The translations under genes were made by a program, and so were the position numbers. A DNA stretch of 64,000 bases. Source: a virus (lineage: Duplodnaviria; Heunggongvirae; Uroviricota; Caudoviricetes). Shown here piece by piece: positions 13,651 through 33,095 of the stretch (positions within the stretch are counted from its first letter, which is position 1; every line of letters begins with the position of its first letter). The notes under the pieces are model-generated. The model worked only from the letters and a program-made list of their open reading frames with translations. It made no database searches and was not told the DNA's origin. The DNA lies in IMG/VR virus record IMGVR_UViG_3300032312_000788, positions 74,986-138,985 of that record. One strand, 5' to 3'.

Positions 13651-14376
13651 ATGAAAAGAAAATTTAGATCAGATAAAATTATTCTGATTGGTGATACGCA
13701 TTCTAATACTGCATCGCATCATATCCTGAATGTGAGGATTCCAGATGGTTCCGATGTCATTCATATCGGAGATCATGGACTTGGTTTTGGTAATATCTCG
13801 TATGCTATCGAGAACGCTTTATCTTGGCTGGATAGAATCAATAAACTATGTCAAGCTATAGATGTGATGTATTACATTATAAGAGGAAATCATGATGCAA
13901 CTTATCCCAAAATTTGGGACAGTAAATGGTCAAATATTGTTCTCATCAAAGATCAAGAATATGTAGAATTCCCAAATGGGAAGAAAGCTATTCTAGTAGG
14001 TGGTGGAATAAGCGTTGATAGATGTAATCGAAAACAAGGTGTTGATTATTGGTATGATGAACCCACAATACCTATTGATAACGTGGAGAAATGTGATATC
14101 ATGTTCTCGCATGATGCACCAGATTACTTCAATCATCCAACGAATACTCTACATGTGAGATTTCAATGGTCTATTGATAAAGATCCAACACTATTATCAG
14201 ATTGTTATACTCAAAGAGAGTTAATGTCCTCTATTCTGGAAAAATCAGAGGCTAAAACACTCGTAAGTGGTCACTTCCACAATTCTAAGAAAGAGGAACG
14301 AAATGGTGTATACTATCAGTGTTTGGATATTAATGAGATTTTTGAATTTGATGCTAACAAAGAATATAAATTATGA
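13651..14376 (+). CDS. PPP-type metallophosphoesterase (Ser/Thr phosphatase-like)
   Basis: GDTHS, GDHGLG, RGNHD motifs in order. Confidence 0.65.
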   Translation: MKRKFRSDKIILIGDTHSNTASHHILNVRIPDGSDVIHIGDHGLGFGNISYAIENALSWLDRINKLCQAIDVMYYIIRGNHDATYPKIWDSKWSNIVLIKDQEYVEFPNGKKAILVGGGISVDRCNRKQGVDYWYDEPTIPIDNVEKCDIMFSHDAPDYFNHPTNTLHVRFQWSIDKDPTLLSDCYTQRELMSSILEKSEAKTLVSGHFHNSKKEERNGVYYQCLDINEIFEFDANKEYKL

Positions 14377-14927
14377 CTAAAGTATTAGTATTGGATTTTG
14401 ATGAGACATTGGCCTCATCTATGTATGCCAGTAATGAAAAACACGCTGATGAATTGTTGGAAACGTATGGCCAATATTGGCACGGTGTTAAATTTCAATT
14501 ACCGAACGATGGGTGGTATGTATCATTCATACGATCTTGGTCTAAGGAATTGATATCATACTTCCAGATGACTTTAGGATTGGATAATATTTGTATTCTT
14601 TCTTGGGGGACTAATGATTATGTTTTGAGGGCTGCTCATCTCTTGGATTTAGGCATCTCACCCCAAAATACATTTACACGAGAAGATATTGGATACACAG
14701 TTCCAAGATTTGAGAATAAGAATAATGTATTGGTGGACAATGAAAATTATTCATACCATCGAGGAGGTTATCATAACAAGGTAAATTTTTTGTATGGGTT
14801 AGAACCAGAGAAATTAGTCCAAGTTACTAATTTTGATGTAAGATATTTCCAAGAAGGTTTAGATATTACATTGGAAGAACTAATTAAAAAAATAGAAACA
14901 GCTTTTGATTATGAGGCCGAAGTTTAG
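14373..14927 (+). CDS. HAD-superfamily phosphatase (PNK 3'-phosphatase-like)
   Basis: N-terminal VLVLDFDETLAS (DxDxT) motif as in the T4 Pnk phosphatase domain. Confidence 0.55.
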   Translation: MTKVLVLDFDETLASSMYASNEKHADELLETYGQYWHGVKFQLPNDGWYVSFIRSWSKELISYFQMTLGLDNICILSWGTNDYVLRAAHLLDLGISPQNTFTREDIGYTVPRFENKNNVLVDNENYSYHRGGYHNKVNFLYGLEPEKLVQVTNFDVRYFQEGLDITLEELIKKIETAFDYEAEV

Positions 14928-15336
14928 AGTTTGGAATAAGAGAAATAAAAGATGGTTGTCTAAAGATGACCATAGTCTACATTGTTGGAGTCACTGGATG
15001 TTGGATATTTTCAGTGGAAAAATATATGATTTCGCTTTAGTTGGAGAGCATTACACACCAGATGTAGAGCCAGATTTTTATATGGATAAAACGACTCTTG
15101 TTTCGGAGAGTCCATATATCATCCAACAATGGACAGGAATGACTGATAAAGAGAGTGTAGATATATACGAAGGAGATATTGTAGAATACACATTAGCTAA
15201 TTCTAGATTCAAAGATAGGATTGAATGGCAAAACTATGGATGGGTTCTACAAGGTATAGATATAGACTCTGGATTTCCTCTTTGCGAAGCATATGACATG
15301 AAGATTGTTGGAAATATTTTCCAGAATGATCAATAA
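14905..15336 (+). CDS. YopX-family protein
   Basis: MRPKFRVWNK..DIYEGDIVEY pattern of YopX. Confidence 0.5.
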   Translation: MIMRPKFRVWNKRNKRWLSKDDHSLHCWSHWMLDIFSGKIYDFALVGEHYTPDVEPDFYMDKTTLVSESPYIIQQWTGMTDKESVDIYEGDIVEYTLANSRFKDRIEWQNYGWVLQGIDIDSGFPLCEAYDMKIVGNIFQNDQ

Positions 15337-15708
15337 AACACTAATGAATAATACGGACATGACAATTACAGATCTAGCATTACAAGAGCTACATGAAACT
15401 TGGGGGTATACTACCGAAGAGTTGAATGATATTCGAGATAAGATGGAAGAATTAGCCAATACTTGGTTTTGGGAAGGATACCAAGAAGCTTCAAATAAGG
15501 AAAAATCATTTACATCATATGGAAAATCAGAAGATTATGAATGAAGAGCAAACAGAAGCGGTATATGCCAATGATGAAACTTTATCAGCATTAAAAGAGA
15601 GATGGTTTAAATTAGCTAAGAACGAGGTTTTTGGAAAAACTAAAGAGATAACCAAAAAACTTGATGATCTAGAAAAAAGTATCAATAACCGAAAGAAAGA
15701 ATTAACAG

Positions 15709-16116
15709 ATGTTTGAAATTGAATTACCAAAGTATAAAGGAAGAATATTCAAACCTTATGATTGGTTTGGATGGTTAGCATCCTTAGTGGGAATTGGTCT
15801 AATGGCTATTATCGTTAGAGATGATAGCATTGAATGGTATCAAAAGTGTTGGGTTATGGGTGCTGTTGGATTCTGCACTCTCGAATATTTTTGGAGAGTT
15901 GCTCAAGGAAGGGTCTATAAATACATTTACTATGATACAATTATACACAATATGTATCAAATTAAAATAGGAGAAAATACTTATTACATTTGTGCGGAGA
16001 GTATTGAAGAGTTAGAGCTATATTTGGATGTTCATTATCCAAATGTATCAGAAAATTATGAAGTTATCTCAGAAAATGCTGTAGAGTCTTGGATTAAAAA
16101 GGAAAATTTTGTATGA
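15709..16116 (+). CDS. hypothetical membrane protein
   Basis: two hydrophobic segments. Confidence 0.35.
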   Translation: MFEIELPKYKGRIFKPYDWFGWLASLVGIGLMAIIVRDDSIEWYQKCWVMGAVGFCTLEYFWRVAQGRVYKYIYYDTIIHNMYQIKIGENTYYICAESIEELELYLDVHYPNVSENYEVISENAVESWIKKENFV

Positions 16117-16631
16117 AAGTTATATATGGTGATATGTTAGAGGGTGATTGGGATTTTGCTTGTCACATCGCAAATTGTTATACAACATTTGGTAGTGGAA
16201 TCGCTTATTTCATTAGACGAAAATTCCCAAAAGTTTATCAGGCTGATTTAGACTGTGACCTGAATGAAGTTGATAAGCTTGGAAATTATTCTTATGGTGA
16301 TATTGGAGATGGTCGTGGTATCTATAACATTTATGCTATGCGAGGATTGGGAAATGATGGATCTCACCTAGGTAGAAATTGTAGTTACGATGCCCTAGCT
16401 GATGCTCTCGATAAAATTTGTGAAGAGATTGAATACAACTGTTCTTTGTGGGAAGGTCGTATTAGGGTCGGAGTTCCGAGGCTTATGGGTTGTTGTAGAG
16501 CGGGAGGATCGTGGACCATTGTAGAATCCATTTTACAAACTATGGAAGAATTACATCCAAATATTGAGTTTGTGGTTTATGATTTTGAAGGTGAAGAAAA
16601 GGCTCAGAGCACTTTACCAATAAAACACTAA
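16113..16631 (+). CDS. macro-domain protein (ADP-ribose / Appr-1-p binding or hydrolysis)
   Basis: VIYGDMLEG..FACHIANC..FGSGIAYFI resembles macro GDIT..NAAN..GGGVAGAI signature. Confidence 0.55.
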   Translation: MKVIYGDMLEGDWDFACHIANCYTTFGSGIAYFIRRKFPKVYQADLDCDLNEVDKLGNYSYGDIGDGRGIYNIYAMRGLGNDGSHLGRNCSYDALADALDKICEEIEYNCSLWEGRIRVGVPRLMGCCRAGGSWTIVESILQTMEELHPNIEFVVYDFEGEEKAQSTLPIKH

Positions 16632-16645
16632 AGCATAATAACAGA
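16621..16645 (+). promoter_or_regulatory. conserved gene-start motif (promoter or initiation signal), example
   Basis: TAAAACACTAAAGCATAATAACAGA then ATG at 16646. Confidence 0.5.
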
Positions 16646-18037
16646 ATGAACATAAAAGTATCAGAAAACGCAGATCCAAATTACTTGGCTACTGTAATAA
16701 GATGTCCAGAAATTCGAGATCATCCGGGGGCTGACCGTTTATCGATTACAGAAATTTTTGGTAATACTGTGGTGTTGGGAAAAGGATCTTATGTGAAGGA
16801 TGACCTATGTGTTTACTTCCCTGTAGAATCTTGTCTATCGCCTAAGTTCTTGTCATGGGCTAATTTATACGATAAGGAAATTCTTAATGCTGATGGTAAG
16901 ACTAAGGGATTCTTCTCGCAGAAAGGTAATCGTGTAAAGGCTGTTAAATTACGTGGAATTCCATCTCAAGGATTTTTGTATAAGATCGAGGAATTGGCCA
17001 AATATTACAACATTTCTCCTAGAATTTTTGCCTTGGGTGAATCTTTTGATACTGTTGGTGAGGATTTACTTGTAACCAAATACATCAGACCAGAGGTTAA
17101 GTCAAACAATGAGAATAATACACCCAAGAATAAAATTCCTAAGTGGATTAATACAACTTTGGGTATTTTCCCTCGTCCTATCAGAAATACTATTTTCCCT
17201 GTAGTTAAGTGGTACTATGGTCTATCTAAGGACGATGGTATCAAGTCTCTTATTGTGGATGGACAATTCAAATTCCATGGCAAAACTGAACACTTGGGTA
17301 AGAACATTTGGTTGATCAATCCAGAGGATGAGATTACGATCACATCCAAGGCTCATGGAACCAGTGCAATCTTCGGTAATATTTTGAGTAAGCGTAAGCT
17401 TAGTTTAATTGAAAATATTAAACTGAAATTGGGTGTTGATGTAAAGACAACTGAATACACACTAGTTTATAGTAGTAGAAGTATTCTGAAGAATCGAAGA
17501 GATGGGAAATACACTGATGATGTGTGGGGTATTGAAGCATCTAAACTAGAGGGTATTATTCCAGAAGGTTATACTTTATTCGGAGAAATTGTTGGTCATA
17601 CACCCGGAGGTAAAACCATTCAAAAGAATTATGATTATGGAGTTCCTCTCACAGAATCGGATTTTTGGGTATATCGTATCACAGAAACTACTACTGATGG
17701 TGTAGTTAGGGAACTATCATTCCCAGAGATTTCGAAGTTGTGTGAAGAATTGTGCATCAAAACAGTCCCTCATTATTATACTGGAAAAGCCGAAGATCTA
17801 TTTCCCGATATCAAAGTGAATAAAGATTGGTCTACCAATTGGTTACACGCTTTGAAGGAGAAGTATCTCGATAAGAAATGTGAATTTTGTAAATCGGGTG
17901 TTGTAAATGAAGGAGTTGTTGTTAAGATCAATTCCAAGGATACAAAACCAGTCTTTAAATTCAAGTCTCCTTTATTTAACATAGCCGAGGGGAAACTTAG
18001 AGATAGTGAGTATGAAGATATAGAAGAATTAAATTGA
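16646..18037 (+). CDS. ATP-dependent RNA ligase, Rnl2/Rnl5 clade, with about 230-aa N-terminal extension
   Basis: motif I TSKAHGTSAIFGNI matches T4 Rnl2 KIHGTNFSLI (KxHGT); nucleotidyltransferase domain begins about residue 235. Confidence 0.6.
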   Translation: MNIKVSENADPNYLATVIRCPEIRDHPGADRLSITEIFGNTVVLGKGSYVKDDLCVYFPVESCLSPKFLSWANLYDKEILNADGKTKGFFSQKGNRVKAVKLRGIPSQGFLYKIEELAKYYNISPRIFALGESFDTVGEDLLVTKYIRPEVKSNNENNTPKNKIPKWINTTLGIFPRPIRNTIFPVVKWYYGLSKDDGIKSLIVDGQFKFHGKTEHLGKNIWLINPEDEITITSKAHGTSAIFGNILSKRKLSLIENIKLKLGVDVKTTEYTLVYSSRSILKNRRDGKYTDDVWGIEASKLEGIIPEGYTLFGEIVGHTPGGKTIQKNYDYGVPLTESDFWVYRITETTTDGVVRELSFPEISKLCEELCIKTVPHYYTGKAEDLFPDIKVNKDWSTNWLHALKEKYLDKKCEFCKSGVVNEGVVVKINSKDTKPVFKFKSPLFNIAEGKLRDSEYEDIEELN

Positions 18038-19098
18038 ATCAATCATCATATGAAAAAATGAGTCCAATTGGACTAAATATTCATATGGATAAAATACAAT
18101 ATATTAAAGATAATTATGGAATATTATCAAATTCTGAAATATCAGACTCACTAGGATTGAGTGTAAATCAAATTAGGTCGTTGGTATACAAACATATTCC
18201 TTTTGATGATAGATATAGGAGGGGTAAGTCTCCACATTCTAAACCAAAAAGAAAATTTAACGTAAACGATGAAAGTTTTTCTGAATATAACTTAAATTCT
18301 TGCTATTGGGCTGGATTAATGGCTGCTGATGGTCATATTACAAAAAAATGGGATTCGTTTTCGATTGGGTTGAAGGAGTCTGATAGATCACATATAGAGA
18401 AATTTAAGGTGTGGTTGAATTTCGATGGTCCAATATGCTATAACAAAAATAAATACTTATATAAAGGTGTAGAGCAAATGAAATATTCTTATTCTATAAA
18501 AGTCACTTCTAAAAAGATAGTGGAAGATTTAAATAATAATTTTGGTGTTATTAGAAAAAAGAGTTTGATAATCAAGCCTCCAACAAAGATAAAAGATGAT
18601 CAGCATATAGATTCTTTTATAAAAGGATATATTGATGGAGATGGTTCTTTATCTTTGGGTAAAGATAAAACATCGAGATTATCTATTTTGGGAACTTATG
18701 ACATGATTATTTGGATAAATGAAAGGTTTGAAAATATACTCGGTCGTCATTTACCGAAACCCATAAAAAATGGAAATGTGTGGAAGATTGATCTAGGTAA
18801 TAAAACATCTAGAAAACTTTTACAAACCTTTTTTAATATAAAAACACCAGAATTGGAAAGAAAATGGACTCCAGAACTGAGAGATATAGTCTTTAATTAT
18901 AAAAAGAGTAGAAATTTAGATAATTATAAAAATATTATAAGAATGCAAAGCGAAGGAATGAATCAAACAGAAATAAGCAAACATATTGGTGTTACCTCAG
19001 CAGCAATATGTTGGATTATGAAACAGGATTGTTTTAAAATCTTGAAGGAGAGTGCCGCTAGAGATAATGGAGAAGCTGATATGGAGGAAGAAAGTTAA
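18034..19098 (+). CDS. LAGLIDADG homing endonuclease with C-terminal HTH
   Basis: two LAGLIDADG motifs (YWAGLMAADGHI and KGYIDGDGSL); C-terminal HTH (TEISKHIGVTSAAICWIMK). Confidence 0.7.
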   Translation: MNQSSYEKMSPIGLNIHMDKIQYIKDNYGILSNSEISDSLGLSVNQIRSLVYKHIPFDDRYRRGKSPHSKPKRKFNVNDESFSEYNLNSCYWAGLMAADGHITKKWDSFSIGLKESDRSHIEKFKVWLNFDGPICYNKNKYLYKGVEQMKYSYSIKVTSKKIVEDLNNNFGVIRKKSLIIKPPTKIKDDQHIDSFIKGYIDGDGSLSLGKDKTSRLSILGTYDMIIWINERFENILGRHLPKPIKNGNVWKIDLGNKTSRKLLQTFFNIKTPELERKWTPELRDIVFNYKKSRNLDNYKNIIRMQSEGMNQTEISKHIGVTSAAICWIMKQDCFKILKESAARDNGEADMEEES

Positions 19099-19099
19099 T

Positions 19100-19261
19100 A
19101 TGAACGATAAATGGTATAATTCTGATTTTGCTGCATTGTTGGGTTTTGGTATTTTAGTGTTCTTATTATGTTTAGGTTTAGGGACGTGTACAAAAGTATC
19201 AGGTGGTCTACCACCGATCCAAGATAATAAAACACTAAATCATAATGTTGAACATGAATGA
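19100..19261 (+). CDS. small membrane protein
   Basis: start trimmed to internal Met; single TM segment. Confidence 0.3.
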   Translation: MNDKWYNSDFAALLGFGILVFLLCLGLGTCTKVSGGLPPIQDNKTLNHNVEHE

Positions 19262-20021
19262 ATCAATCAAAGAACATCCAGCCTTTGTGAATTGTGGGGG
19301 ACAATTGTTGGTTGAGCTTATCGGTGGATCGACTTTGTATGGACTGAATAATGAATCATCAGATATCGATTATCGTGGTTTGTTTATAGCTAGAGATAAA
19401 AAGTATATCAGTGGATTTGATACAATTGAGTCTATCGTTCAGGACAATGAAATCGATTCTACTTATTACGAACTCACTCGATATCTAAAGCTTTTGAGAA
19501 AATCTAATACTCAAGTATTAGAGATTCTATTCGCACCAGACGATGCCTTTACATATAAGTCTAATCTGTTTGACTATATTAGAGAAAACCGTTATGATCT
19601 AATCGAAACTAATATTTTGAAGTCTTCTCTGAAGGGTTATGTGTTCAGTGAGATTAGATTGGCTACGGGAGAAAGATCTGGTCAATTGGGTGGTAAACGA
19701 AAGGCTTCTGTCGTAAAGTATGGATACAGCCCGAAGAATTTTGTTCAAATTTTACGCTTATGTAAAGTGGGTCAAGTATTCTTCACCTCTGGAGATTACA
19801 TGGTTAAAGTGAAAGATTTCGATCCTAATTATCACGATTTTTTGATGGAAATCAAAACTAAACCAGAAAACTTCACAAAGGATGAATTATCCGGTTTGGT
19901 CGATGAAGAGTTTAAAAAACTAGAAAAAATCATGAATGAATCTACCATTAATTTCAAATTTGATGTTGATTTGGCTTCCGACATTGTTCTAGATGCGAGA
20001 TATGGCTACGAAGATTACTAA
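19245..20021 (+). CDS. Pol-beta-superfamily nucleotidyltransferase
   Basis: GGSTLYGLNNESSDIDYRG = hG[GS]x(9-13)DhD minimal NTase motif. Confidence 0.55.
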   Translation: MLNMNESIKEHPAFVNCGGQLLVELIGGSTLYGLNNESSDIDYRGLFIARDKKYISGFDTIESIVQDNEIDSTYYELTRYLKLLRKSNTQVLEILFAPDDAFTYKSNLFDYIRENRYDLIETNILKSSLKGYVFSEIRLATGERSGQLGGKRKASVVKYGYSPKNFVQILRLCKVGQVFFTSGDYMVKVKDFDPNYHDFLMEIKTKPENFTKDELSGLVDEEFKKLEKIMNESTINFKFDVDLASDIVLDARYGYEDY

Positions 20022-20211
20022 ATTTATAGATAATAAGGATAAGTCAGAAAATCTAACATATTATACAGACTACCCGACAGAACCTATAGGTGGAGGAAAT
20101 CCATACTATAGATGTAAATCGTGTGGTGTGAGTGATCCAGAAATAAATGGTAGATTAGATGGACATCGAAGCGATTGCGAATGGATCTTGAATAAGAAAA
20201 AGGAAGTATGA
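19993..20211 (+). CDS. small hypothetical (CxxC) protein
   Basis: 72 aa. Confidence 0.25.
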   Translation: MRDMATKITKFIDNKDKSENLTYYTDYPTEPIGGGNPYYRCKSCGVSDPEINGRLDGHRSDCEWILNKKKEV

Positions 20212-20624
20212 GCGAAAATACAAAACAAGTTATTATAATCAGGGCTGATCTCAATATGAGAAAGGGGAAAATTGCAGCACAAGCGAGTCATGGAAGTATG
20301 TCATTCTTAACTAAGAGTGGATCAACTGTCTTCTATGATCATCATTGGGCTTATTATCGAACTTCTAATTTCAATAAGGATTGGGTTTATGAACTTGCGC
20401 ACTGGCTTAATAATTCCTTCCGTAAAATTTGTGTATATGTAAACAGTCAAGAAGAACTTGAATCAGTTCATCGAAAAGCACTCGATACTGGGTTAATTTC
20501 TCATTTGATCATTGATAATGGAGCGACCGAATTTAACGGAGTTCCCACAATGACATGCTGTGCAATAGGACCACACTGGGACTATAAGTTTGAGGGTATA
20601 ACAAATCATCTACCATTATTATGA
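20208..20624 (+). CDS. peptidyl-tRNA hydrolase, PTH2 family
   Basis: VIIIRADLNMRKGKIAAQASHGS matches PTH2 LVVRxDLKMGKGKIAAQCSHAA. Confidence 0.75.
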   Translation: MSENTKQVIIIRADLNMRKGKIAAQASHGSMSFLTKSGSTVFYDHHWAYYRTSNFNKDWVYELAHWLNNSFRKICVYVNSQEELESVHRKALDTGLISHLIIDNGATEFNGVPTMTCCAIGPHWDYKFEGITNHLPLL

Positions 20625-20832
20625 GAAATAAATTCAACATGCAAGATTGGGTCAACGAAATAAATCGCTTAAATGAAGCGGATAGGATTCTTCGATTAAT
20701 TCTATCTTATTACGATATATACTCTGGACAATTTAAAAAGGTTCCAGACTACGATACAGATTTATGTAATCCGTATTCACTTAATAGTGCTATAAGAGGA
20801 TATATTAACTTTGACGATTCAGAATAAAAATT

Positions 20833-21099
20833 ATGAGGGATAGTATAAAGAAAATTATAGAATCCACAGGTTTAATGGTTTGTCCTGCTTGTGAAGGTGA
20901 AGGTGAATTGAATTATTTTTGTGGTCACGAATCTACCTCTGATTGTTATCATTGTTCTGGGAGAGGTGTTATCAGATCTTTAAATAAGGAGAAGCATAGT
21001 AAAGTTTGTATTATTTGTAATGGTCGAAGTGGTGGATGCGGTGGATGCAACTTCGACTCAGAGGGTTTTATTAGATGGGAAAGTTTTGAATTATTATGA
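20833..21099 (+). CDS. DnaJ-type cysteine-rich zinc-finger protein
   Basis: repeated CxxCxGxG units. Confidence 0.45.
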   Translation: MRDSIKKIIESTGLMVCPACEGEGELNYFCGHESTSDCYHCSGRGVIRSLNKEKHSKVCIICNGRSGGCGGCNFDSEGFIRWESFELL

Positions 21100-21180
21100 A
21101 ATATTCAAATCTTTTTTTATTTCTATTATTAATTCTTGAAAATTGTTCTTCTTTGGATTTTGGTTTGATTTTATCTGGAT

Positions 21181-21246
21181 TCTTTATTCTATATTCTTTA
21201 TTCTATATTCTATATTCTTTATTCTATATTCTTTATTCTATATTCT
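21181..21246. repeat. 14-bp tandem repeat (tctttattctatat) about 4.5 copies
   Basis: seen directly; generates spurious ORF 21096..21302. Confidence 0.8.
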
Positions 21247-21371
21247 TTTATCAAAACAGAATTACAATCTTTACAATAACTTCTAAGTCCATTTTTTCCT
21301 AATTTTTGTTTCGAAAAACATAAAAGAGGTTTAAATATTTTACAAACACTACAAACTTTACCTTCACTCAT
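21219..21371 (-). CDS. possible 50-aa zinc-ribbon mini-protein
   Basis: hand-translated minus-strand ORF MSEGKVCSVCKIFKPLLCFSKQKLGKNGLRSYCKDCNSV.. with two CxxC pairs; C-terminus derived from the tandem repeat; below the 60-aa ORF cut-off. Confidence 0.25.
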   Translation of the reverse strand: MSEGKVCSVCKIFKPLLCFSKQKLGKNGLRSYCKDCNSVLIKEYRIKNIE

Positions 21372-21400
21372 ACTATTATTTAATATATTCGGTTGAAGAT

Positions 21401-22090
21401 TTGAAGAAAAACTTTACATTTATGAAATTATATTTAGTGCGCCACGGTCAGTCATTAGGAAACGCGAATCCTTCGGTTTATTTTCAAAAACTTGATTGTG
21501 ACATAGAACTTACCGGACATGGACAAGCTCAAGCTGTAAAATCAGGTGACAGAATTATGGATTTAAACGATCATATCGTTCATAAAAACGATACAGATTA
21601 TCCTTATCCTAGTAAGAATCCACCTTATAGGTTCAATATGTGCTATAGTCCATATAAAAGGGCTAGACAAACAGCAGATATTATTCATGGACAAATCACC
21701 AATTTTGAAGGATATCATATCGAGAATTATCAAGAGATGCCTTTATTGATTGAAAGAAATTGGGGATCTTTGAGAGATATTGTAGAAGCCGGTAAAAAAA
21801 CCGAAGATCATTTTAATTTCTATTATAGACCAGATGGTGGTGAGAGTTTCTTGGATACATATCAGAGAGTAGTTCTATTCGATATGTGGCTCAAGAGTAA
21901 TACCAAGTATGAGAATAACATTGTAGTCGCTCATGGAGAATTCAATAAATTATATCTCATGTATCTTTTAGGTTGGTCTGTTAAAGAATTTCAAAAATAT
22001 AAGACTCCGAAAAACGGTGAAGTGTATTTGATCGAAGATGGTAAATTATCATCATTAACCCCTCTAACAGAAAAATATATTAAACACTAA
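21401..22090 (+). CDS. histidine phosphatase superfamily (PGAM-like)
   Basis: LYLVRHGQSLGN (RHG catalytic motif). Confidence 0.65.
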   Translation: MKKNFTFMKLYLVRHGQSLGNANPSVYFQKLDCDIELTGHGQAQAVKSGDRIMDLNDHIVHKNDTDYPYPSKNPPYRFNMCYSPYKRARQTADIIHGQITNFEGYHIENYQEMPLLIERNWGSLRDIVEAGKKTEDHFNFYYRPDGGESFLDTYQRVVLFDMWLKSNTKYENNIVVAHGEFNKLYLMYLLGWSVKEFQKYKTPKNGEVYLIEDGKLSSLTPLTEKYIKH

Positions 22091-22104
22091 GATATCATAA
22101 AACT
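22079..22104 (+). promoter_or_regulatory. conserved gene-start motif
   Basis: ATTAAACACTAAGATATCATAAAACT then ATG 22105. Confidence 0.5.
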
Positions 22105-22482
22105 ATGATATACGCAATTAATTTTAAAGAATCGGGTGAAGTCTTGACACCCGAATCATTCAAGAAATATTGGCCTAATTATGGGAGTAATTCACTACAA
22201 GGTTGGAGAGCACCCAAGAAGATTTATTATAAACTTGGACAAGCCAAAACTGGATTTTCACATATTCCAGAGCAACTAAAACCGTATCTAGAAATTTCAG
22301 AATTCGCCAAGGTTAAGTCTGTGATTGATGGGGCTGATCTAATGATTTCTCAAAAAGAAAACAGAGAAATTAAAGAAAAGAAGGTAAAAGAGCGTAGAGC
22401 CAAGTGGCAGTTAGAAAGGGCTAAGTCTGATTACGAAAAGGCTAAGAGTGCCTTAGAATCTATTGAGAAAAATATACCATGA
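22105..22482 (+). CDS. hypothetical protein
   Basis: 125 aa. Confidence 0.35.
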   Translation: MIYAINFKESGEVLTPESFKKYWPNYGSNSLQGWRAPKKIYYKLGQAKTGFSHIPEQLKPYLEISEFAKVKSVIDGADLMISQKENREIKEKKVKERRAKWQLERAKSDYEKAKSALESIEKNIP

Positions 22483-23027
22483 AACGAGCGACACTAACTA
22501 ATTCTTACTGGTGGAGAGAACAATTTTGGAAAATCCGAGATTGGTTCTATCCAAGACAAAAATGGTTGACTAAAAAAATACCAAATCACTGGACAGATAA
22601 GATTGAACTTATTCCGCTTGTTCTATTCGAAATTTTAATTAATTTCGTAGAGAAGGAGGATGGACTCGAATCGATTTGGGGTGAGAGATATACAGGAGAA
22701 TCTGAAGATTGGAGACTTATCAGAGAACCAATCAGAAAGGAACTAGAGGAGATTTATGACTACATTAAAAACATTAGACCGCAACTCCAAAAAGAATTGG
22801 ATGAGTCATATCCTAAACCTCTTGATGGTGGTAATTTCTTTGATCATATTGATGAAATTGATAAAGATGGGAAGAAAGTATATCAAATGAGAACATGTGA
22901 ACAAATTTATGGTAAATCGTATAAGGATGCGTATGCTGAAGTTCATCGTTTAGAGGGTTTGATTGAAGAGAAAGATACTTGGGCTATGATGGGTATCGTT
23001 AGGCTTAGACAATCACTTTGGACTTGA
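22479..23027 (+). CDS. hypothetical protein
   Basis: 182 aa. Confidence 0.4.
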   Translation: MKRATLTNSYWWREQFWKIRDWFYPRQKWLTKKIPNHWTDKIELIPLVLFEILINFVEKEDGLESIWGERYTGESEDWRLIREPIRKELEEIYDYIKNIRPQLQKELDESYPKPLDGGNFFDHIDEIDKDGKKVYQMRTCEQIYGKSYKDAYAEVHRLEGLIEEKDTWAMMGIVRLRQSLWT

Positions 23028-23052
23028 TTAAACACTAAACTACAATTCAGAC

Positions 23053-23505
23053 ATGTTAAAGGCGTCTGGAGTTATAAATGTTCAACCACACAAAGGTCGT
23101 ATGGTTCTTGATGTTTCTCAAGATCTTGTTGAGCTTTATTATTGGTTTATATCCAAAAATTATTGGATCAGAATGAACAGACCAATGCATGGTGCTCACA
23201 TAACCCTTTATAGCTCGAAACATAACAAGAAAATCAATTGGGAGAAAGCTATGTATTATCACGGTAAAACCATTGAGTTTGATTATGATGAGAATATAGT
23301 TGAAGGTGGTTATACTAAGGGATTCTTGATGTATTACCTTAGAGTGTATTCAGAAGAACTAGATAAGATTAAGAAGAAGATCGGAGTTGTCGATGGTGAA
23401 AGATTTAAAGGAATTCATTTGACCATATGTAACGGAAAATTTAATTCAGCTTACCCTAGTTGGCCAAAAACCATCGAAATTAGAGAAAAAATGCTACCGC
23501 AATGA
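23053..23505 (+). CDS. 2H phosphoesterase (LigT/CPDase-like)
   Basis: two HxTx motifs (GAHITL and GIHLTI) about 85 residues apart. Confidence 0.6.
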   Translation: MLKASGVINVQPHKGRMVLDVSQDLVELYYWFISKNYWIRMNRPMHGAHITLYSSKHNKKINWEKAMYYHGKTIEFDYDENIVEGGYTKGFLMYYLRVYSEELDKIKKKIGVVDGERFKGIHLTICNGKFNSAYPSWPKTIEIREKMLPQ

Positions 23506-23517
23506 CTAAATAGTATT

Positions 23518-24495
23518 GTGGTATACACATTACAAGATAGGAAAAGTTGGCCAGTTACTACAGGCGTATATAAATTAACATTTATTAATTCAACATCTAA
23601 TAAAGTTTATATAGGAAGTTCTGCGAGTATTCGGAAAGGTAGTTATTACGGAATTAGAACTAGATGGGGTAAACACGCTGATTTACTTAAATTGGGAATA
23701 CATTATTCGAAAAAATTACAGTATGCATATAATAAGTATGGCGGAGAAAATCTTACATTCGAAATCATAGATTCTTGCGATGGTGGGAATATAATAGAGA
23801 TGGAGACGTTTTATATTACCAAATACGATAGTTGTAATAATGGTTACAATTCTAGACCAACCGCAGAAAGTAATGTCGGTTATAAAGTCCCCAAGTCTAT
23901 CATAGAAAAGACAAATATAACAAAAAGAAAGAAAAGGGAACCTTACGAAATCGATGTCCTTAAGCTTTATAAAGAAACCAAAAATGCTTTAGGTGTTTCG
24001 AGGGAATTGGGATTGAGTCATAGTGTAGTTTTAAAAATTTTAAAAGACTACAATATAATTCCAAAAAATGGAGATTATAAGCGGAAAAATGTCTACGCAT
24101 ACATGTTGGATGGGTGTTTTGTGGGAATATGGAAAGATGCTAGGAGTTGTGCTGATGCACTAAATCTTAAAAGTATTTGTAGTATATCTCATGTTGCTAT
24201 GGGTAAGAATATTTCATATAAAGGATATTTCTTTTCATATGAAAAGAAAACCAAAAGAGAGATAGTTGATTATATAAAAACTAGAATATGTGAAAGCAGA
24301 CAAAAAATGAGCAATCCAGATAAGTTGATACTTCGCAACATTGGTCAATATGATATGTCAGGGAACTTGATAAAGGTTTGGGAAACCTCAACAGAAATTA
24401 AAAAATATTTTGATATGTTCAATTTTTCCCCAATATCAGCGGTTTTTGCTGGAACAAAAAAACATTACAAAGGTTTCTTTTGGAAAAAAGAATAA
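23518..24495 (+). CDS. GIY-YIG homing endonuclease
   Basis: GVYKLTFINSTSNKVYIGSSASIRKG..RWGKH; long C-terminal DNA-binding region. Confidence 0.7.
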   Translation: MVYTLQDRKSWPVTTGVYKLTFINSTSNKVYIGSSASIRKGSYYGIRTRWGKHADLLKLGIHYSKKLQYAYNKYGGENLTFEIIDSCDGGNIIEMETFYITKYDSCNNGYNSRPTAESNVGYKVPKSIIEKTNITKRKKREPYEIDVLKLYKETKNALGVSRELGLSHSVVLKILKDYNIIPKNGDYKRKNVYAYMLDGCFVGIWKDARSCADALNLKSICSISHVAMGKNISYKGYFFSYEKKTKREIVDYIKTRICESRQKMSNPDKLILRNIGQYDMSGNLIKVWETSTEIKKYFDMFNFSPISAVFAGTKKHYKGFFWKKE

Positions 24496-24712
24496 TGGAT
24501 CAGTCTTTGCTGATTGGCCTAAACTTATAGAATTACGATAATATGACAGATAAAAAGACTTTACCAGATTTTTCTGAAATAGCGAAAGATATCAGATATT
24601 TAGAAGCCGAATCCTTTTGGATAGCGTATTATCAACCTTTAGGTATATCTGTTATAGGTAAAACCAAAGAAGACTCAACGAACGGTTTAGAAAAGGCATA
24701 TAATTCACATAA

Positions 24713-24967
24713 ATGAAAATAATCAAGACTAAGGTAACTACAATTGAATTCGACCCCGAAGAGGAGAGAAATAGAATTCGTAGAATTTTTAAGAAAAAGA
24801 AATATCGGGATGCGTTGATTAAAGTCATCAATGTCTTTGAAAAGGATGGATTAGATGCCGCATACGAAGCTTATGATGAGCTTCCATACAATGAAGAAGA
24901 CGAATACCCTCTTCAAGAATCTATGGGTATCTGGTGGTTCAATATACACGGTGATTTTGTTGTATAA
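24713..24967 (+). CDS. hypothetical protein
   Basis: 84 aa. Confidence 0.3.
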   Translation: MKIIKTKVTTIEFDPEEERNRIRRIFKKKKYRDALIKVINVFEKDGLDAAYEAYDELPYNEEDEYPLQESMGIWWFNIHGDFVV

Positions 24968-25007
24968 TAAAAAGGTTAAAGTGACCGAGGAAACTAAAAT
25001 AGAAATC

Positions 25008-25033
25008 ATTAAACACTAAGATATAATAATAGT
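25008..25033 (+). promoter_or_regulatory. conserved gene-start motif
   Basis: ATTAAACACTAAGATATAATAATAGT then ATG 25034. Confidence 0.5.
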
Positions 25034-25438
25034 ATGAAACAAAGAAATTTATTGGTGCTTAGGTCAGTTTCGGGTGCTGGTAAGACTACATTTTGTAATC
25101 TTTTTCCCGATGCTGTAGTATGCTGTGCAGATGATTACTTCACTGACAAGGATGGGAATTATAACTGGTATCTTGAAGGTCTTGGGAAAGCTCATGGATA
25201 TTGTTGGAACAAATTTGTCGATGCTGTTACTTCAACAACTAAGGATATCATCATTGCCAATGTTAACGCAAAACCTTCCGATTGGAACAAGTATGTGAAA
25301 GAAGCTGAAGATCTTGGGTTCATCGTAACTTTCATTGTGCTTGAAAATAGGCACGGTGGTAAGGATGTTCATAATGTTCCAGAAGAGACTCTACAACGCC
25401 AAGAGAAAACCATTAGAGAAAATCTTAAACTACGTTAA
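25034..25438 (+). CDS. P-loop kinase, polynucleotide 5'-kinase-like
   Basis: Walker A SVSGAGKTTF followed by CADDYFT, similar to T4 Pnk kinase GSGKST..NRDDYR. Confidence 0.5.
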   Translation: MKQRNLLVLRSVSGAGKTTFCNLFPDAVVCCADDYFTDKDGNYNWYLEGLGKAHGYCWNKFVDAVTSTTKDIIIANVNAKPSDWNKYVKEAEDLGFIVTFIVLENRHGGKDVHNVPEETLQRQEKTIRENLKLR

Positions 25439-25440
25439 TC

Positions 25441-25884
25441 ATGGCTAAATCTAAATATCCAAAGGGGTTTCGTGCTACTTGGCCACCTAAATTATACACA
25501 CAAAAACCGAATAAAACTATCCCAGCATATAGTGAATTATCTAAGGTTAGAGTGAGTGATGGAGACGAATTAATCTTTGAAGAAGGTAGACGATATAAAC
25601 TGTCTTTAGATCACGATTATGGGTGTTGTTATTATCCATCAGATATTCCATCAGATATTCCATCTATTGAAGCATATTTGATCGAATTTTCAGACGAGGG
25701 TATCGAGAATCCAAACTATAAATCTGAATTAAGAAAATATAATAGAGATAAGAAAAAACATTCCGAAGAGTTGAAAGAGTGGAAGAAGTGGAAAGCTATC
25801 TGGGATAAAGAAGAAGCGGCTGCGCAAGAAGCAGCAGAACGTAAAAAGTTGGAGGAATTGAAGGCTAAGTATGAAAAGCAATAA
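25441..25884 (+). CDS. hypothetical protein with charged C-terminal helix
   Basis: SDIPSDIPS duplication. Confidence 0.35.
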   Translation: MAKSKYPKGFRATWPPKLYTQKPNKTIPAYSELSKVRVSDGDELIFEEGRRYKLSLDHDYGCCYYPSDIPSDIPSIEAYLIEFSDEGIENPNYKSELRKYNRDKKKHSEELKEWKKWKAIWDKEEAAAQEAAERKKLEELKAKYEKQ

Positions 25885-26590
25885 ATCTGGAAATTACATT
25901 CAATTGACGAATTACCCTTTAGAATATTTCCAACCACTCTTCTCTGAAGAAAGGTGGAACGAAATCTTAGGAGTTGTTAATAACTGGATTAATCCTAAAT
26001 TGGATAGTGGTAGGACATTCAAATCTCTTATTATGAATCCCGAAACAGAATTATGTTTCAATGTGGGCGATAAGGATAATGTAGCCCAACATATGATGGA
26101 ATATATCCAAAAACAAGTTCTTGAGAAATATCTATCTCAAGAAGAAGTTCAGATGTGTAATTTCAAGGCCATGAATGCCCATTCTGAGGCTAGAGAAAAG
26201 AGAATCTATGATAGTGCTATAAAGGTAGATGAAGCCGATTATTGTCAACCTGTCTTTGAGGGTGACACTTTCTATTATGGTGGTGTAGATGATCTTAGAG
26301 ATATGTGGGATTATGATTATCCTCTTCCAGAGTATGTTTACGGTACAACCAAACTTTATACATTGAATAGTTGTGATTTGGATCAAGCTATCAATATTAT
26401 TCTAGAGCGTGTTGATGTAGAAGAAGATGATTTCATCAATATTTCAAAAATCCCAGAATATCTACAAGAAGCGTGGGATAAGTTTGTTGATGAAAATACT
26501 CAAGTATATTATGAAATCGATAATAAGACAGTAGTTTTACTCGATAAAACACTAAACCATAATGCTGAGTATGAAGCTACCAACGACTGA
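25871..26590 (+). CDS. hypothetical protein
   Basis: 239 aa. Confidence 0.4.
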   Translation: MKSNKSGNYIQLTNYPLEYFQPLFSEERWNEILGVVNNWINPKLDSGRTFKSLIMNPETELCFNVGDKDNVAQHMMEYIQKQVLEKYLSQEEVQMCNFKAMNAHSEAREKRIYDSAIKVDEADYCQPVFEGDTFYYGGVDDLRDMWDYDYPLPEYVYGTTKLYTLNSCDLDQAINIILERVDVEEDDFINISKIPEYLQEAWDKFVDENTQVYYEIDNKTVVLLDKTLNHNAEYEATND

Positions 26591-27134
26591 AGAATTCACT
26601 TACAAAGACTGTGTTATCGCAGGAGATGATTGCTGGCTTATCACTCCAAATCATATCGGTTGTAAGTGGAATGATGAAAATGCTCGTTTTCGTTCATGTA
26701 TTGTTCGTAAGTCGGATAATTTTGTAGTATCACAAGGGTTTGGGAAATTTACCAACTTTTCTGAACAACCAGATTTTCAACCATGGGATAAATCATGGAA
26801 GTTTGAAGCTCGTCATAAGTTGGATGGATGCTGTGACGAAAATACTATACTCTTTACAGAGGATGGTAATAAAACTATAAAGGAAATTTGTGATACTTTG
26901 TACATTGGAAAGGTGTTGGGATACAATCATAAAACTTCTCAAGAAGAGATGATTGATATATTGGCGCATTCTGTGAAATCCAATAACAACGATTGGTATG
27001 AATTGGAATTAGAAGACGGTAAGATTATTACCCTTACAGGAAACCATAAGGTGTATCTTCCTGAGTTGGATTGTTATCGAAGGGTTGAAGATTTGATAGG
27101 TGATGAAGTATTTTTATTGTCAAAAGGTGGATAA
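26562..27134 (+). CDS. Rnl1-type RNA ligase N-extein (about 89 aa) fused to split-intein N-terminal half
   Basis: GFGKFTNFSE..RHKLDG resembles T4 Rnl1 RPMEKFFNLNE..TKEDG (motif I KxDG); immediately followed by CCDENTILFTEDGNKTIKEI (intein block A) and LTGNHKVY (block B), then stop. Confidence 0.7.
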   Translation: MLSMKLPTTEEFTYKDCVIAGDDCWLITPNHIGCKWNDENARFRSCIVRKSDNFVVSQGFGKFTNFSEQPDFQPWDKSWKFEARHKLDGCCDENTILFTEDGNKTIKEICDTLYIGKVLGYNHKTSQEEMIDILAHSVKSNNNDWYELELEDGKIITLTGNHKVYLPELDCYRRVEDLIGDEVFLLSKGG

Positions 27135-28178
27135 TATCAACTTTATGACTAAATAAGTATATGACATGTCCATTTGAAAATATCCAGATAGAGTATAATG
27201 CAGCGTATACTAAAAGAATTTCTAAAAAATATCAACTTTCAGTAGACGAAGTTAAACATAAATTACTAACCGCCAATTTTCCTGAGATAGCGACAGAATC
27301 TAAATTCAGATTTTTTTATATAGACAGAGAATACTCTATACCCAAATTGGCTAGGGAATTCGGATTAAAATACTCCCAAATTGAATTTTTAATAAAATTT
27401 TATAATATTGCGAATAGGAATCATTCACAAGCAGCATCCACAAAATCTACAAGAAATCAGTATAAAAATACCTGCAATAAAAAGTATGGTGTTGATAATG
27501 TGAGTCAAATAGAAGAAGTCAAGAATAAAAAAGCGAACACATTCATATTAAACTATGGTGTAGATAATATTTGGAAATCTAAATCGTATTACGAATGGTT
27601 GGATACTTTCATGGTTGATAAGTATGGTAAAAGACGAATAACTGGAGACAATCAATCTGAAATTAGAAAAGAATATTGGAAAAATCTCCCATCTGATAAA
27701 AGAGAAGAAAGAATCAAAAAAATATTAGAAAATCTTCACACTGGATGTTATTCAAAACTCGAATCAAAAATATCAGTTATATTAGATGAATTTGAAATAC
27801 CTTATGAACGTTCATTTTGGCTGAACAAAAAACAATTCGACTTTAAAATTAAGGACAGTAATATCTTAATTGAAGTTCATGGAGATTTTTGGCACGCTAA
27901 TCCTTTAAAATACAAAGCTAATGACATATTAAACCATCCAAACAATCCAGTATCGGCTAAAGACTTATGGGAGAAAGATAGTAAAAAATTAAAGATGGCT
28001 AATTCTTACGGATATGATATAGTATATATTTGGGAGTCAGATATCAAAAACGATAAACACATAGAAATTTTATTCAATGAGATTAAAAAGTATAAAAAAG
28101 ATTGAGAATGGTTCAAAGAGATATGATATACAAACATCGTCTCAAAATTTTTATGCCAATAACATCTTGGTTCACAAC
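26829..28178 (+). mobile_element. split intein (IntN 26829..27134, IntC 28077..28178) with intervening free-standing homing endonuclease gene
   Basis: IntN and IntC lie in the same frame but are separated by stop codons; the endonuclease ORF sits between them in another frame. Confidence 0.65.
27161..28105 (+). CDS. free-standing homing endonuclease, Vsr-like / EDxHD-type catalytic domain
   Basis: C-terminal ILIEVHGDFWHANP..DIVYIWESD resembles Vsr FVDGCFWHGH core; sits between intein halves in a different frame. Confidence 0.55.
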   Translation: MTCPFENIQIEYNAAYTKRISKKYQLSVDEVKHKLLTANFPEIATESKFRFFYIDREYSIPKLAREFGLKYSQIEFLIKFYNIANRNHSQAASTKSTRNQYKNTCNKKYGVDNVSQIEEVKNKKANTFILNYGVDNIWKSKSYYEWLDTFMVDKYGKRRITGDNQSEIRKEYWKNLPSDKREERIKKILENLHTGCYSKLESKISVILDEFEIPYERSFWLNKKQFDFKIKDSNILIEVHGDFWHANPLKYKANDILNHPNNPVSAKDLWEKDSKKLKMANSYGYDIVYIWESDIKNDKHIEILFNEIKKYKKD

Positions 28179-29006
28179 TCTCTTCTCATCGTATCCAAGT
28201 ATAAGGGTGAACTCATTTGTAGAACCCGTGGAACCGTTGATGCTCGTCAGATGGCTAATGGGCATGAGATTGATGAACTCATTAAGAAGCATTACTTTTT
28301 CGAAACTCTAAAAAGAGGACCGGAAACTTATGGTGTGTCTTATCTCTTCGAATGGACGACCCCAAACAATATAATTGTATTAAGGGAACATAATGAACCA
28401 ACTTTAACTTTAGTTGGATCAGTTGCTAATGATTATGATGGGTGTGAGTATGCAACGCAATCTTATTTAGATTGCCTAGCTGAAATATATGGCTTTGATC
28501 GTCCACAAAAATACGAATACGACTCTATCGAAGAATGTCTCAAGGATGTTGCTGCTTGGAAAGGTAAAGAAGGTGTTGTATTGTATTCACCAGATGGGCA
28601 AACCTTAAAGAAGATCAAGGCTGATGAGTATTGTGAGCTTCATAAGATTTGCACTGGTATCAAGAATATCAATCAGGTATTAGATTTATTCATGACTACT
28701 GATAGATTTACTAAGTATGAGGATTTCTATAAGTATATCGAAATGACTATCGACTACGAAGTAGCTGAACGTCTCAAGGATGATTTATTAAAAATCGTTA
28801 CTGCTTATAACAAAGTCTTGGAAAAGATGAAGAAGGTTGATCATGTCATTGATGGTATCAGAGGTGATTCTTTCACTCGAAAGGATCAAGCTATGTGTAT
28901 CACACAACATTGGTCTGATTGGAGAAAATCCTACGGGTTCGTTACCCTAGACAATAAGGTAGTTGAAGACAAGCTTATCAAAGCTGCAATAGAATCAGAA
29001 TTATGA
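28077..29006 (+). CDS. split-intein C-terminal half (34 aa) fused to Rnl1-type RNA ligase C-extein
   Basis: NFYANNILVHN|S = intein block G with +1 Ser; extein SLLIVSKYKGEL..GTVDARQMANG..LFEWTTPNNIIVL parallels T4 Rnl1 SLVSTYLDGDEIL..GSIKSEQALMANG..FEFVAPTNRIVL. Confidence 0.7.
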   Translation: MRLKSIKKIENGSKRYDIQTSSQNFYANNILVHNSLLIVSKYKGELICRTRGTVDARQMANGHEIDELIKKHYFFETLKRGPETYGVSYLFEWTTPNNIIVLREHNEPTLTLVGSVANDYDGCEYATQSYLDCLAEIYGFDRPQKYEYDSIEECLKDVAAWKGKEGVVLYSPDGQTLKKIKADEYCELHKICTGIKNINQVLDLFMTTDRFTKYEDFYKYIEMTIDYEVAERLKDDLLKIVTAYNKVLEKMKKVDHVIDGIRGDSFTRKDQAMCITQHWSDWRKSYGFVTLDNKVVEDKLIKAAIESEL

Positions 29007-29587
29007 TAGATTATTTACAAGATTTAAAGAATAAATGTAAGGAGTTTTATCCTTATGTTGAGACTGTTCTAGAAGACCCTAGATTTTCTACATGTTCAGG
29101 TTCAGGTTCAGATATTCACCACCATTACGGTGATGGTGGACTGCTTCTACATACATATGAAGTGTATTCATATGGTGAGTTGATCGTTAATAAACATAAT
29201 TCAACATGTAGAGGTTGGGGAAATAGAGTGAATCCATTAGAAGTATTTATAAGTATTATCTGGCATGATTATGGTAAGATTTGGGATTACCAAAAAATTG
29301 ATGGAGTATGGGGAAAACACAATAACCACGCTCGTAAAATACATCATATTTCCAGATCAGCTATAGAGTGGGAAAGACATTATCCAGATATTGTAAGATC
29401 TGGTGTAATAACACCATGCCCAGTGAACGGAAATAGAATCACACACAATATTTTATCTCATCATGGACGAAGAGAATGGGGTAGTCCTGTTGCACCAGCT
29501 ACGAAAGAAGCATGGATTTTGCATCTTGCAGATAATTTGTCTGCTAGGTTGAATGATTGTGATAAACATGATATTATAAAACACTAA
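29003..29587 (+). CDS. HD-domain phosphohydrolase
   Basis: H..H, IIWHDYGK (HD), SHHG, LHLAD motifs. Confidence 0.55.
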   Translation: MIDYLQDLKNKCKEFYPYVETVLEDPRFSTCSGSGSDIHHHYGDGGLLLHTYEVYSYGELIVNKHNSTCRGWGNRVNPLEVFISIIWHDYGKIWDYQKIDGVWGKHNNHARKIHHISRSAIEWERHYPDIVRSGVITPCPVNGNRITHNILSHHGRREWGSPVAPATKEAWILHLADNLSARLNDCDKHDIIKH

Positions 29588-31467: not shown

Positions 31468-31507
31468 AGGGATGGGTTTATAATGAATAAACCCATCCCT
31501 CTTTTCC
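31468..31507 (+). terminator. rho-independent terminator
   Basis: perfect 13-bp stem (agggatgggttta / taaacccatccct), 7-nt loop, then CTTTTCC. Confidence 0.7.
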
Positions 31508-33092: not shown

Positions 33093-33095
33093 ATT

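Follow-up and report, generated by a model that had tools for sequence, protein, structure and literature searches.

A probable RNA-repair module with a split-intein Rnl1 ligase gene in an uncultured jumbo phage

In phage T4, anticodon-nuclease damage is presumed to be reversed by Pnkp (PseT), the RNA ligases Rnl1 (gp63) and Rnl2, and NrdC.11, and these RNA-repair genes are dispersed in the genome. The fungal and plant tRNA ligase Trl1 unites an Rnl1-like ligase, a Pnk-like kinase and a 2H phosphoesterase, and the clean-up is carried out by Tpt1 and Poa1/Cpd1. Bacteria possess the Pnkp-Hen1 and Pnkp1-Rnl-Hen1 systems. In jumbo phages, comparative genomics predicted an RNA-repair kit consisting of Rnl1/Rnl2, a standalone kinase, HAD, calcineurin-like and HD phosphatases, 2H, cREC, Macro, RlaP, Thg1, PTH2 and NAD+ genes (Iyer et al., 2021; PMC7824862). 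In this study, we analysed a window of 64 kb (positions 74,986 to 138,985 of the IMG/VR record IMGVR_UViG_3300032312_000788) out of a phage genome of at least 150 kb. The segment from 13.1 to 30.7 kb of this window is probably an RNA-repair module of an uncultured jumbo phage, with its parts packed into about 17.6 kb. The features of the segment are as follows (window coordinates; + denotes the plus strand).

13109..13636, +, cREC (cyclic-phosphate-processing receiver) protein; Pfam cREC_REC 2.5e-17, PHROG 1479 5e-18
13651..14376, +, calcineurin-like metallophosphoesterase 1 (Metallophos-1); Pfam Metallophos 1e-7, PHROG 1649 5e-18; motifs GDxH, GDxG and GNHD
14373..14927, +, HAD phosphatase of FCP/SCP (NIF) type; DxDxT motif I, D-N motif IV, capless FCP/SCP fold
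16113..16631, +, macro domain protein (DarG/TARG1-like class; phage Tk.4-like family); PDB macrodomains, PHROG 335 1.7e-31
16646..18037, +, Rnl5-like ATP-dependent RNA ligase (N-terminal OB plus nucleotidyltransferase); Pfam PHA02142 OB 3.7e-10, RNA_ligase 4.3e-11
18034..19098, +, free-standing LAGLIDADG homing endonuclease gene; Pfam LAGLIDADG_3 6e-7
19245..20021, +, RlaP Pol-beta nucleotidyltransferase; Pfam RlaP PF10127 4e-16, PHROG 388 3e-30
20208..20624, +, PTH2 peptidyl-tRNA hydrolase (accessory); Pfam PTH2 6.8e-28
21401..22090, +, histidine phosphatase (HisPhos), branch 1, RHG motif; Pfam His_Phos_1 2.1e-23
22479..23027, +, ORF22479, conserved protein inside the module
23053..23505, +, 2H phosphoesterase with two HxT motifs; motif alignment and fold
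23518..24495, +, free-standing GIY-YIG/NUMOD homing endonuclease-like gene; weak Pfam GIY-YIG and I-HmuI NUMOD matches
25034..25438, +, standalone Pnk-like P-loop polynucleotide 5'-kinase; family profile against PDB, PHROG 2071 4e-27
25871..26590, +, ORF25871, conserved protein, overlaps the Rnl1 start
26562..26828, +, Rnl1 N-extein of 89 residues, ends in motif I K-L-D-G; translation, L002 homology and L012 match
26829..27134, +, split intein N-half (Int-N; 101 residues, Cys1, TxxH block B), then stop; Pfam Intein_splicing 1.5e-4
27161..28105, +, Vsr-like free-standing homing endonuclease gene in another reading frame; DUF7487 6e-8, PHROG 3339 'homing endonuclease' 8.6e-11
28077..28178, +, split intein C-half (Int-C), 34 residues, ends ...VHN; C-terminal block of Pfam Intein_splicing
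28179..29006, +, Rnl1 C-extein, starts with Ser+1, bears motifs III, IV and V; spliced product against T4 Rnl1 2c5u
29003..29587, +, HD-domain phosphohydrolase (accessory), start overlaps the Rnl1 stop codon; Pfam HD 1.5e-7
30063..30722, +, calcineurin-like metallophosphoesterase 2 (Metallophos-2); Pfam Metallophos 3.4e-6, PHROG 547 1.8e-23
31468..31500, +, strong intrinsic-terminator-like hairpin, 14-bp stem with 6 G-C pairs, then a T-rich tail

An earlier note on this DNA had called twelve catalytic domains between 13651 and 30063, and all of them were borne out; the genes are intact, densely packed plus-strand open reading frames (ORFs) with the starts named there. Pfam profile searches alone confirm both metallophosphatases (13651 and 30063), the ligase at 16646, RlaP, PTH2, HisPhos and HD. 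The note missed the cREC gene, which lies immediately upstream of its first gene, and it had pointed to the close packing and shared direction of the genes. The packing stands; the co-directionality, however, is uninformative about clustering because nearly the entire 64-kb window is carried by the plus strand. A sigma-70 promoter scan was also uninformative, since 91 sites were found against 96.6 expected. The hairpin at 31468..31500 is the sole long-stem plus-strand terminator candidate 3' of the cluster, whose transcription unit may end there.

Recurrence in relatives is the main evidence that these genes form a functional module. The 16-kb region had no megablast match in 50,697 phage records, and relatives (designated here by L numbers) are present in IMG/VR and assembly collections on contigs of 120-202 kb, the longest example being IMGVR_UViG_3300032281_000616 with 202 kb. 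The nearest, L002, shows 90-100% nucleotide identity with many insertions and deletions relative to the window, and is without PTH2, HD, ORF22105, the LAGLIDADG gene and the Rnl1 intein. A backbone of PTH2, HisPhos, ORF22479, 2H, kinase, ORF25871, Rnl1, in part HD, and Metallophos-2 is found at 40-80% protein identity in L012, L016 and L021. In L019 the order is kinase, Metallophos-1, 2H, ORF25871 and Rnl1, and Metallophos-1 homologues adjoin the kinase and 2H in L019 and L020. The neighbourhood is otherwise shuffled in L011, where 2H lies immediately upstream of the Rnl5-like ligase. Metallophos-2, RlaP and Rnl1 follow each other in L004 and stand in the opposite order (Rnl1, RlaP, Metallophos-2) in L005; Metallophos-2 is linked to RlaP and Rnl1 also in L012, L016 and L020. 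L003 groups ORF22479, RlaP, cREC, HAD and Metallophos-1, and in Vibrio phages the kinase homologue adjoins Rnl1. The same families thus co-occur, in varying orders, in relatives as low as 30-45% identity. Because the linkage is conserved and also survives rearrangement, the clustering is more than chance.

Compared with the jumbo-phage complement (PMC7824862), the parts list is essentially identical and NAD+/ADP-ribose genes lie nearby; the window phage differs in the partners ORF22479 and ORF25871, the fractured Rnl1 and the packing described above. The phage RNA-repair kit is therefore already described, and the window is a dense, well-conserved further example in which the split-intein Rnl1 and the two conserved partners are distinctive. 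With T4 the module shares an Rnl1-type ligase with KxDG and motifs III-V, a Pnk-type kinase aligned over its full length to 1ltq, a second, nick-sealing-type ligase, RlaP, and the presumed purpose. In contrast to T4, the repair genes are clustered, an intein divides Rnl1, an Rnl5-like enzyme that has an N-terminal OB domain stands in place of Rnl2 as second ligase, and the kinase is a standalone protein of 134 residues without a fused HAD 3'-phosphatase. The separation of kinase and phosphatase agrees with the earlier note, and the separate HAD gene is FCP/SCP-like. The note had also presented the breadth of the set as exceeding that of T4. This contrast is overstated, because T4 has a RlaP, NrdC.11 (PMC12776372), and the macro family includes Tk.4 of a T4-like phage.

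As in Trl1, an Rnl1-type ligase, a P-loop kinase and a 2H enzyme belong together, here by genetic linkage and with a macro domain nearby; the modules are, however, separate genes and not one polypeptide. The suggestion that the macro protein processes Appr-1''-p as in eukaryotic tRNA splicing is unsupported, because this route needs Tpt1/KptA and the macro domain is nearest to the DarG type (DarG/TARG1-like and not demonstrably Poa1-like). No match to Tpt1/KptA (PTS_2-RNA) was obtained among the 60 window ORFs scanned with Pfam; the window represents 64 kb out of at least 150 kb of genome. The bacterial Pnkp-Hen1 and Pnkp1-Rnl-Hen1 systems resemble the module in their Pnk-clade kinase (4xrp, 4gp7), a linked ligase and a candidate end-healing metallophosphoesterase; in the window no Hen1 methyltransferase was found, and kinase, phosphatase and ligase are unfused.

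The core of the module comprises the Pnk-like kinase, 2H, Rnl1, the Rnl5-like ligase and RlaP, and its RNA-repair reading is supported by profiles, fold searches and conserved linkage. Single-sequence PDB searches were insufficient for several enzymes (nothing was returned for the kinase, 2H, HAD and both metallophosphatases), and family profiles or structure models were used in their place; NCBIfam added nothing for 2H, kinase and HAD. The kinase call, which might have been spurious, holds: its family profile (A2) matches T4 Pnk (1ly1/1ltq) at 4.7e-6 over residues 1-147, the entire kinase domain, and also matches Pnkp1 (4xrp) and CthPnkp of C. thermocellum (4gp7). The invariant residues K17 and D33 align with K15 and D35 of T4, and the Pfam AAA_33 match is weak. 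RlaP scores 59.9 bits on PF10127 against a gathering cut-off of 23. In the window, about 1.2 kb separate it from the Rnl5-like ligase upstream, and it adjoins Rnl1 in L004 and L005. The RlaP family prefers damaged RNA and adds one or two nucleoside monophosphates to damaged RNA 3' ends, restoring aminoacylation of repaired tRNA (PMC12776372).

The 2H call was likewise in doubt and likewise stands. In 23 aligned homologues the motifs H49-I-T51 and H122-L-T124 are present, with H49, H122 and T124 invariant and T51 conserved in at least 90%, and the gene product has a 2H fold. A tblastn search with the 2H protein matched only two uncultured huge phages, so that no close similarity to Acb1, the anti-CBASS 2H enzyme of cultured T4-like phages, was detected. 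The 2H protein is a probable RNA 2',3'-cyclic phosphodiesterase; an Acb1 orthologue is disfavoured both by the lack of detectable sequence similarity and by the gene context of a kinase and an RNA ligase. The GIY-YIG/NUMOD gene that follows (23518..24495) is a selfish insert.

The ligase at 16646, called Rnl2/5-type before, is Rnl5-like. Its OB domain (PHA02142, residues 14-112) precedes the nucleotidyltransferase domain (RNA_ligase, residues 229-440), and it matches TIGR02306 (DraRnl) at 1.3e-12, under the equivalog cut-off, and PHROG 968 at 1.8e-54. With 463 residues it exceeds DraRnl in length, and a gene of Synechococcus phages B3/B23 is 37% identical to it. The ligase is just 71% identical between the window (16646-19098) and L002 (7247-9869), where flanking genes reach 97-100%. 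The LAGLIDADG gene, which is a selfish insert outside the pathway, directly follows the ligase in the window and is absent from L002, which carries unrelated small ORFs at that place. This region looks like a homing-endonuclease-associated exchange hotspot.

The most distinctive part of the locus is the fractured Rnl1 (26562..29006), for which sequence comparison indicates a genuine split-intein gene. The splicing residues are all found (Cys1 in C-C-D-E-N-T..., T-G-N-H, and ...V-H-N|S) and are conserved in L013. The conceptually spliced Rnl1 of 364 residues aligns through the junction to T4 Rnl1 (2c5u, 5tt6) at 6e-7, covering KLDG|SLL, FEW, EGVV and KIKADEY. L012 encodes a contiguous Rnl1 of 360 residues with the junction KLDGSLLIV, 79% identical to the spliced product and with an N-terminus 92% identical to the N-extein. 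In the intein-free L002, homology ends exactly at 26829, the first intein codon. The Vsr-like endonuclease ORF (314 residues) has its own start, 26 nt past the Int-N stop, and its 3' end overlaps the start of the Int-C ORF (28077-29006) by 29 nt. L013, a 4.5-kb viral contig from an independent metagenome, has the identical three-ORF layout with an endonuclease homologue in the same place; Int-N and Int-C are 65% and 71% identical to those of the window, whereas the exteins are only 36-38% identical. This contrast is the pattern that would be expected of a mobile, functional element. A frameshift or assembly artefact was considered and rejected, as the endonuclease starts in another frame, the layout recurs in L013 and the empty sites are precise. 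A comparison of the spacer before the endonuclease gene between the window and L013 revealed no control element that is clearly conserved.

The arrangement agrees with the fractured genes of Dassa et al. (2009; PMC2677866): Int-N closes one ORF and Int-C opens the next in a phage setting, a Vsr-like endonuclease gene lies between the halves in a different frame, and the overlap of endonuclease gene and downstream start (29 nt here) compares with 6-69 bp there. The Vsr-like family is marked by the motif E-x4-D-F-W-H, a conserved Glu plus an F-W-H motif that corresponds to Phe62 and Phe67-Trp68-His69 of Vsr (PMC2677866); the signature reads L-I-E-V-H-G-D-F-W-H in the window and L-E-I-Q-G-D-F-W-H in L013. 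The host gene is different, as the eight host types treated in that paper belong to DNA metabolism and do not include an RNA ligase. Contiguous inteins were described in RNA-ligase, RlaP-type nucleotidyltransferase and phosphoesterase genes of actinobacteriophages (bioRxiv 10.1101/2025.01.02.630785). Because the catalytic lysine and the remaining active site lie on separate polypeptides, Rnl1 activity presumably must depend on trans-splicing. Rnl1 would then be made from two polypeptides joined via the split intein, with the catalytic lysine on the N fragment of 89 residues, and the intein itself would have been broken by the free-standing Vsr-like endonuclease gene.

The remaining enzymes surround this core. 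The cREC protein is predicted to open a 2',3'-cyclic phosphate or cyclic ADP-ribose. In L002 its gene is interrupted by a GIY-YIG ORF of 256 residues (N part 63 residues, C part 146 residues) and may be another fractured or intron-split gene. For the protein at 14373, the HAD assignment stands but a T4 Pnk-type 3'-phosphatase does not: it is closest to SCP1 and Fcp1, and its profile (A3) gave only sub-significant SCP and HAD matches in the PDB. The macro call was confirmed by five solved macrodomains in a phmmer search against the PDB (5m3i at 2e-4, 5m31, 2afc, 2fg1 and 5e3b, up to 9e-3), as well as by the PHROG match, and there was no Pfam match at the threshold used. The best of these, 5m3i and 5m31, are DarG macrodomains; NCBIfam DarG matches locally at 1.9e-5, and the residues aligned to the 'KK' of DarG are M-R. 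A search for related loci with the macro protein found the close relative only. In L002 (5611-7145) the macro gene seems to hold an insert of about 0.9-1.2 kb close to its 3' end, and a downstream ORF of 50 residues repeats the macro C-terminus at 92% identity.

HisPhos, a putative 2'/3'-phosphomonoesterase, is kept upstream of ORF22479 and 2H in L012, L016 and L021. PTH2 occupies the same relative position in L012 and L021, and HD is absent from L012 and present in L021 at 79% identity, with a local NCBIfam match to the HD part of the YhaM 3'-5' exoribonuclease (5.9e-12). As both are absent from the closest relative, they are dispensable accessories. ORF22479 has no Pfam or PHROG match; homologues lie between HisPhos and 2H in L012, L016 and L021 and immediately upstream of RlaP in L003. 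In L012, L019, L020 and L021, homologues of ORF25871 have 2H or the kinase on one side and Rnl1 on the other. The ORF25871 family is rare and standalone, comprising 46 clusters only among 1.84 billion representatives in an exhaustive search. No Pfam domain, PDB relative or informative fusion was found for it, and the contexts of distant members are uninformative.

We propose that these components form one pathway. A cyclic phosphate would be opened by 2H, possibly also by cREC, and the resulting 2'- or 3'-phosphate would then be stripped by at least one phosphomonoesterase. HisPhos is the best candidate for this step, because no other phosphomonoesterase accompanies the 2H gene so constantly; alternatives would be the two metallophosphatases, HAD and HD. 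The standalone kinase would phosphorylate the 5'-OH and RlaP would refill one or two lost 3' nucleotides. Rnl1 would seal breaks in single-stranded loops and the Rnl5-like ligase nicks in duplexes, and PTH2 would possibly free peptides from broken peptidyl-tRNAs. A more daring variant regards HisPhos, ORF22479, 2H, kinase, ORF25871 and Rnl1 as a phage version of Trl1-type chemistry, in which 2H yields a 2'-phosphate and the kinase and then the Rnl1-type ligase follow. HisPhos would replace the NAD+-dependent Tpt1 step, ORF22479 and ORF25871 would be new cofactors for specificity or scaffolding, and Rnl1 would be gated by trans-splicing. We regard this variant as speculative and improbable.

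Further enzymes that act on tRNA ends are encoded in the window, including Thg1 and a PP-loop enzyme beside a tRNA. Thg1, NADAR and Band-7 had been missed before. The relevant neighbouring features downstream of the cluster are:

31867-34900, Prs-like phosphoribosyl-pyrophosphate synthetase, NADAR (2e-47) and Band-7/SPFH
41328-42104, Thg1-family 3'-5' nucleotidyltransferase (tRNA 5'-end repair or tRNA-His G-1 addition); Pfam 1.9e-28
52828-53541, PP-loop ATPase (ATP_bind_3, TilS-like); 1.1e-34
53976-54050, tRNA, anticodon CAT; the PP-loop gene ends 5 nt before the tRNA

The PP-loop ATPase and the tRNA(CAT) may be a lysidine-synthetase/tRNA-Ile2 pair. Rfam reports a second, weak tRNA (33 bits) that was not detected by ARAGORN, and a tRNA-like RNA beside the Band-7 gene was looked for and not found. 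In L021 a Band-7 homologue lies inside the repair backbone, between ORF22479 and 2H. The same contig carries a PARP-domain (ADP-ribosyltransferase) gene right downstream of Rnl1 and HD (12320-12435), which is another link of the repair module to ADP-ribose chemistry. Genes of nucleotide and DNA metabolism follow further downstream in the window, at 42494-43177, 46819-47223, 49156-49980 and 57353-58897 (ThyX, a weak dCMP-deaminase-like protein, a C5 cytosine DNA methylase and a UvrD-like helicase), and two YopX genes are located at 14905 and 35137. Three homing-endonuclease genes lie within the module (18034, 23518 and 27161), and a fourth, of GIY-YIG type, lies upstream (4416-5186).

The domain identities, the gene linkage and the anatomy of the intein are established here, and RNA repair as counter-defence is the best reading of them; we infer its counter-defence purpose, all substrates and the order of the steps. 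Several observations weigh against it. L009, a 2H-family locus, is without a recognisable RNA-repair neighbour within 10 kb, and the synteny could be largely inherited and not selected. L002, the nearest relative, lacks PTH2 and HD. The 2H fold is equally close to anti-CBASS Acb1 and to RNA cyclic phosphodiesterases, and HAD belongs to the FCP/SCP protein-phosphatase type and not to the T4 Pnk-type 3'-phosphatases. Among solved structures, the macro protein is nearest to DNA ADP-ribosyl hydrolases (DarG); 2,418 phage records contain members of its family, not necessarily beside RNA-repair genes, and in phage PaulScherrer the macro and kinase homologues are about 78 kb apart. Finally, RNA ends are no more than putative substrates of the five generic phosphoesterases, HisPhos, HD, the two metallophosphatases and HAD. 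Thus, of the generalised RNA counter-defence proposed in the earlier note, the core repair reading stands, the novelty does not (the kit is that of PMC7824862), and the roles of the generic phosphoesterases are presumptive.

Potentially, RNA is repaired only by the ligases, the kinase and RlaP, and the segment is a mixed counter-defence island whose remaining hydrolases eliminate immune signals or modifications of the host. The 2H protein would be an Acb1-like cyclic-oligonucleotide nuclease, macro and NADAR would take ADP-ribose off DNA, RNA or small molecules, cyclic or alarmone nucleotides would be broken down by the metallophosphatases and HD, and a protein would be dephosphorylated by the FCP/SCP-type HAD. 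The kinship of HAD with SCP1 and Fcp1, the DarG-like macro domain that is common outside RNA-repair contexts, and the NADAR, Prs-like and Band-7 genes immediately downstream fit this proposal, and anti-signal roles are given to Macro, NADAR, cREC, calcineurin-like and 2H enzymes also in PMC7824862. However, 2H stays between HisPhos and kinase/Rnl1 in several diverged relatives and adjoins the Rnl5-like ligase after rearrangement, Metallophos-2 accompanies RlaP and Rnl1 in two gene orders, and the tblastn search with 2H found only the two huge phages and no close Acb1 similarity. As an account of the whole segment we consider such an island rather unlikely; it is a serious alternative for the peripheral genes, which overlaps the core repair reading and does not replace it. 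A housekeeping role in tRNA maturation or quality control for the phage's own translation apparatus would accommodate Thg1, PTH2 and the TilS-like enzyme directly upstream of tRNA(CAT). Against it, the 64-kb window has just one or two tRNA genes, none with an intron, RlaP prefers damaged RNA, and the combination of kinase, cyclic phosphodiesterase and ligase suits cleaved RNA and not ordinary bacterial tRNA processing, which makes this role very unlikely. That unrelated accessory genes have piled up by chance in a hyperplastic region is hardly credible: the shared direction of the whole window, the four homing-endonuclease genes and the many insertions and deletions relative to L002 would allow it, but the same families recur together, in different orders, down to 30-45% identity.

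The current picture of phage RNA repair is unchanged by this cluster. For every step from RNA end-healing through end-filling to sealing, the module supplies candidate enzymes from a lineage without a cultured relative, and it provides test material for predicted components such as cREC, phage 2H enzymes, standalone kinases and HisPhos. Its Rnl1 split intein is a further data point on gene fracturing by homing endonucleases, and as a natural split intein situated exactly at motif I of an RNA ligase it would make Rnl1 a potential conditional ligase.

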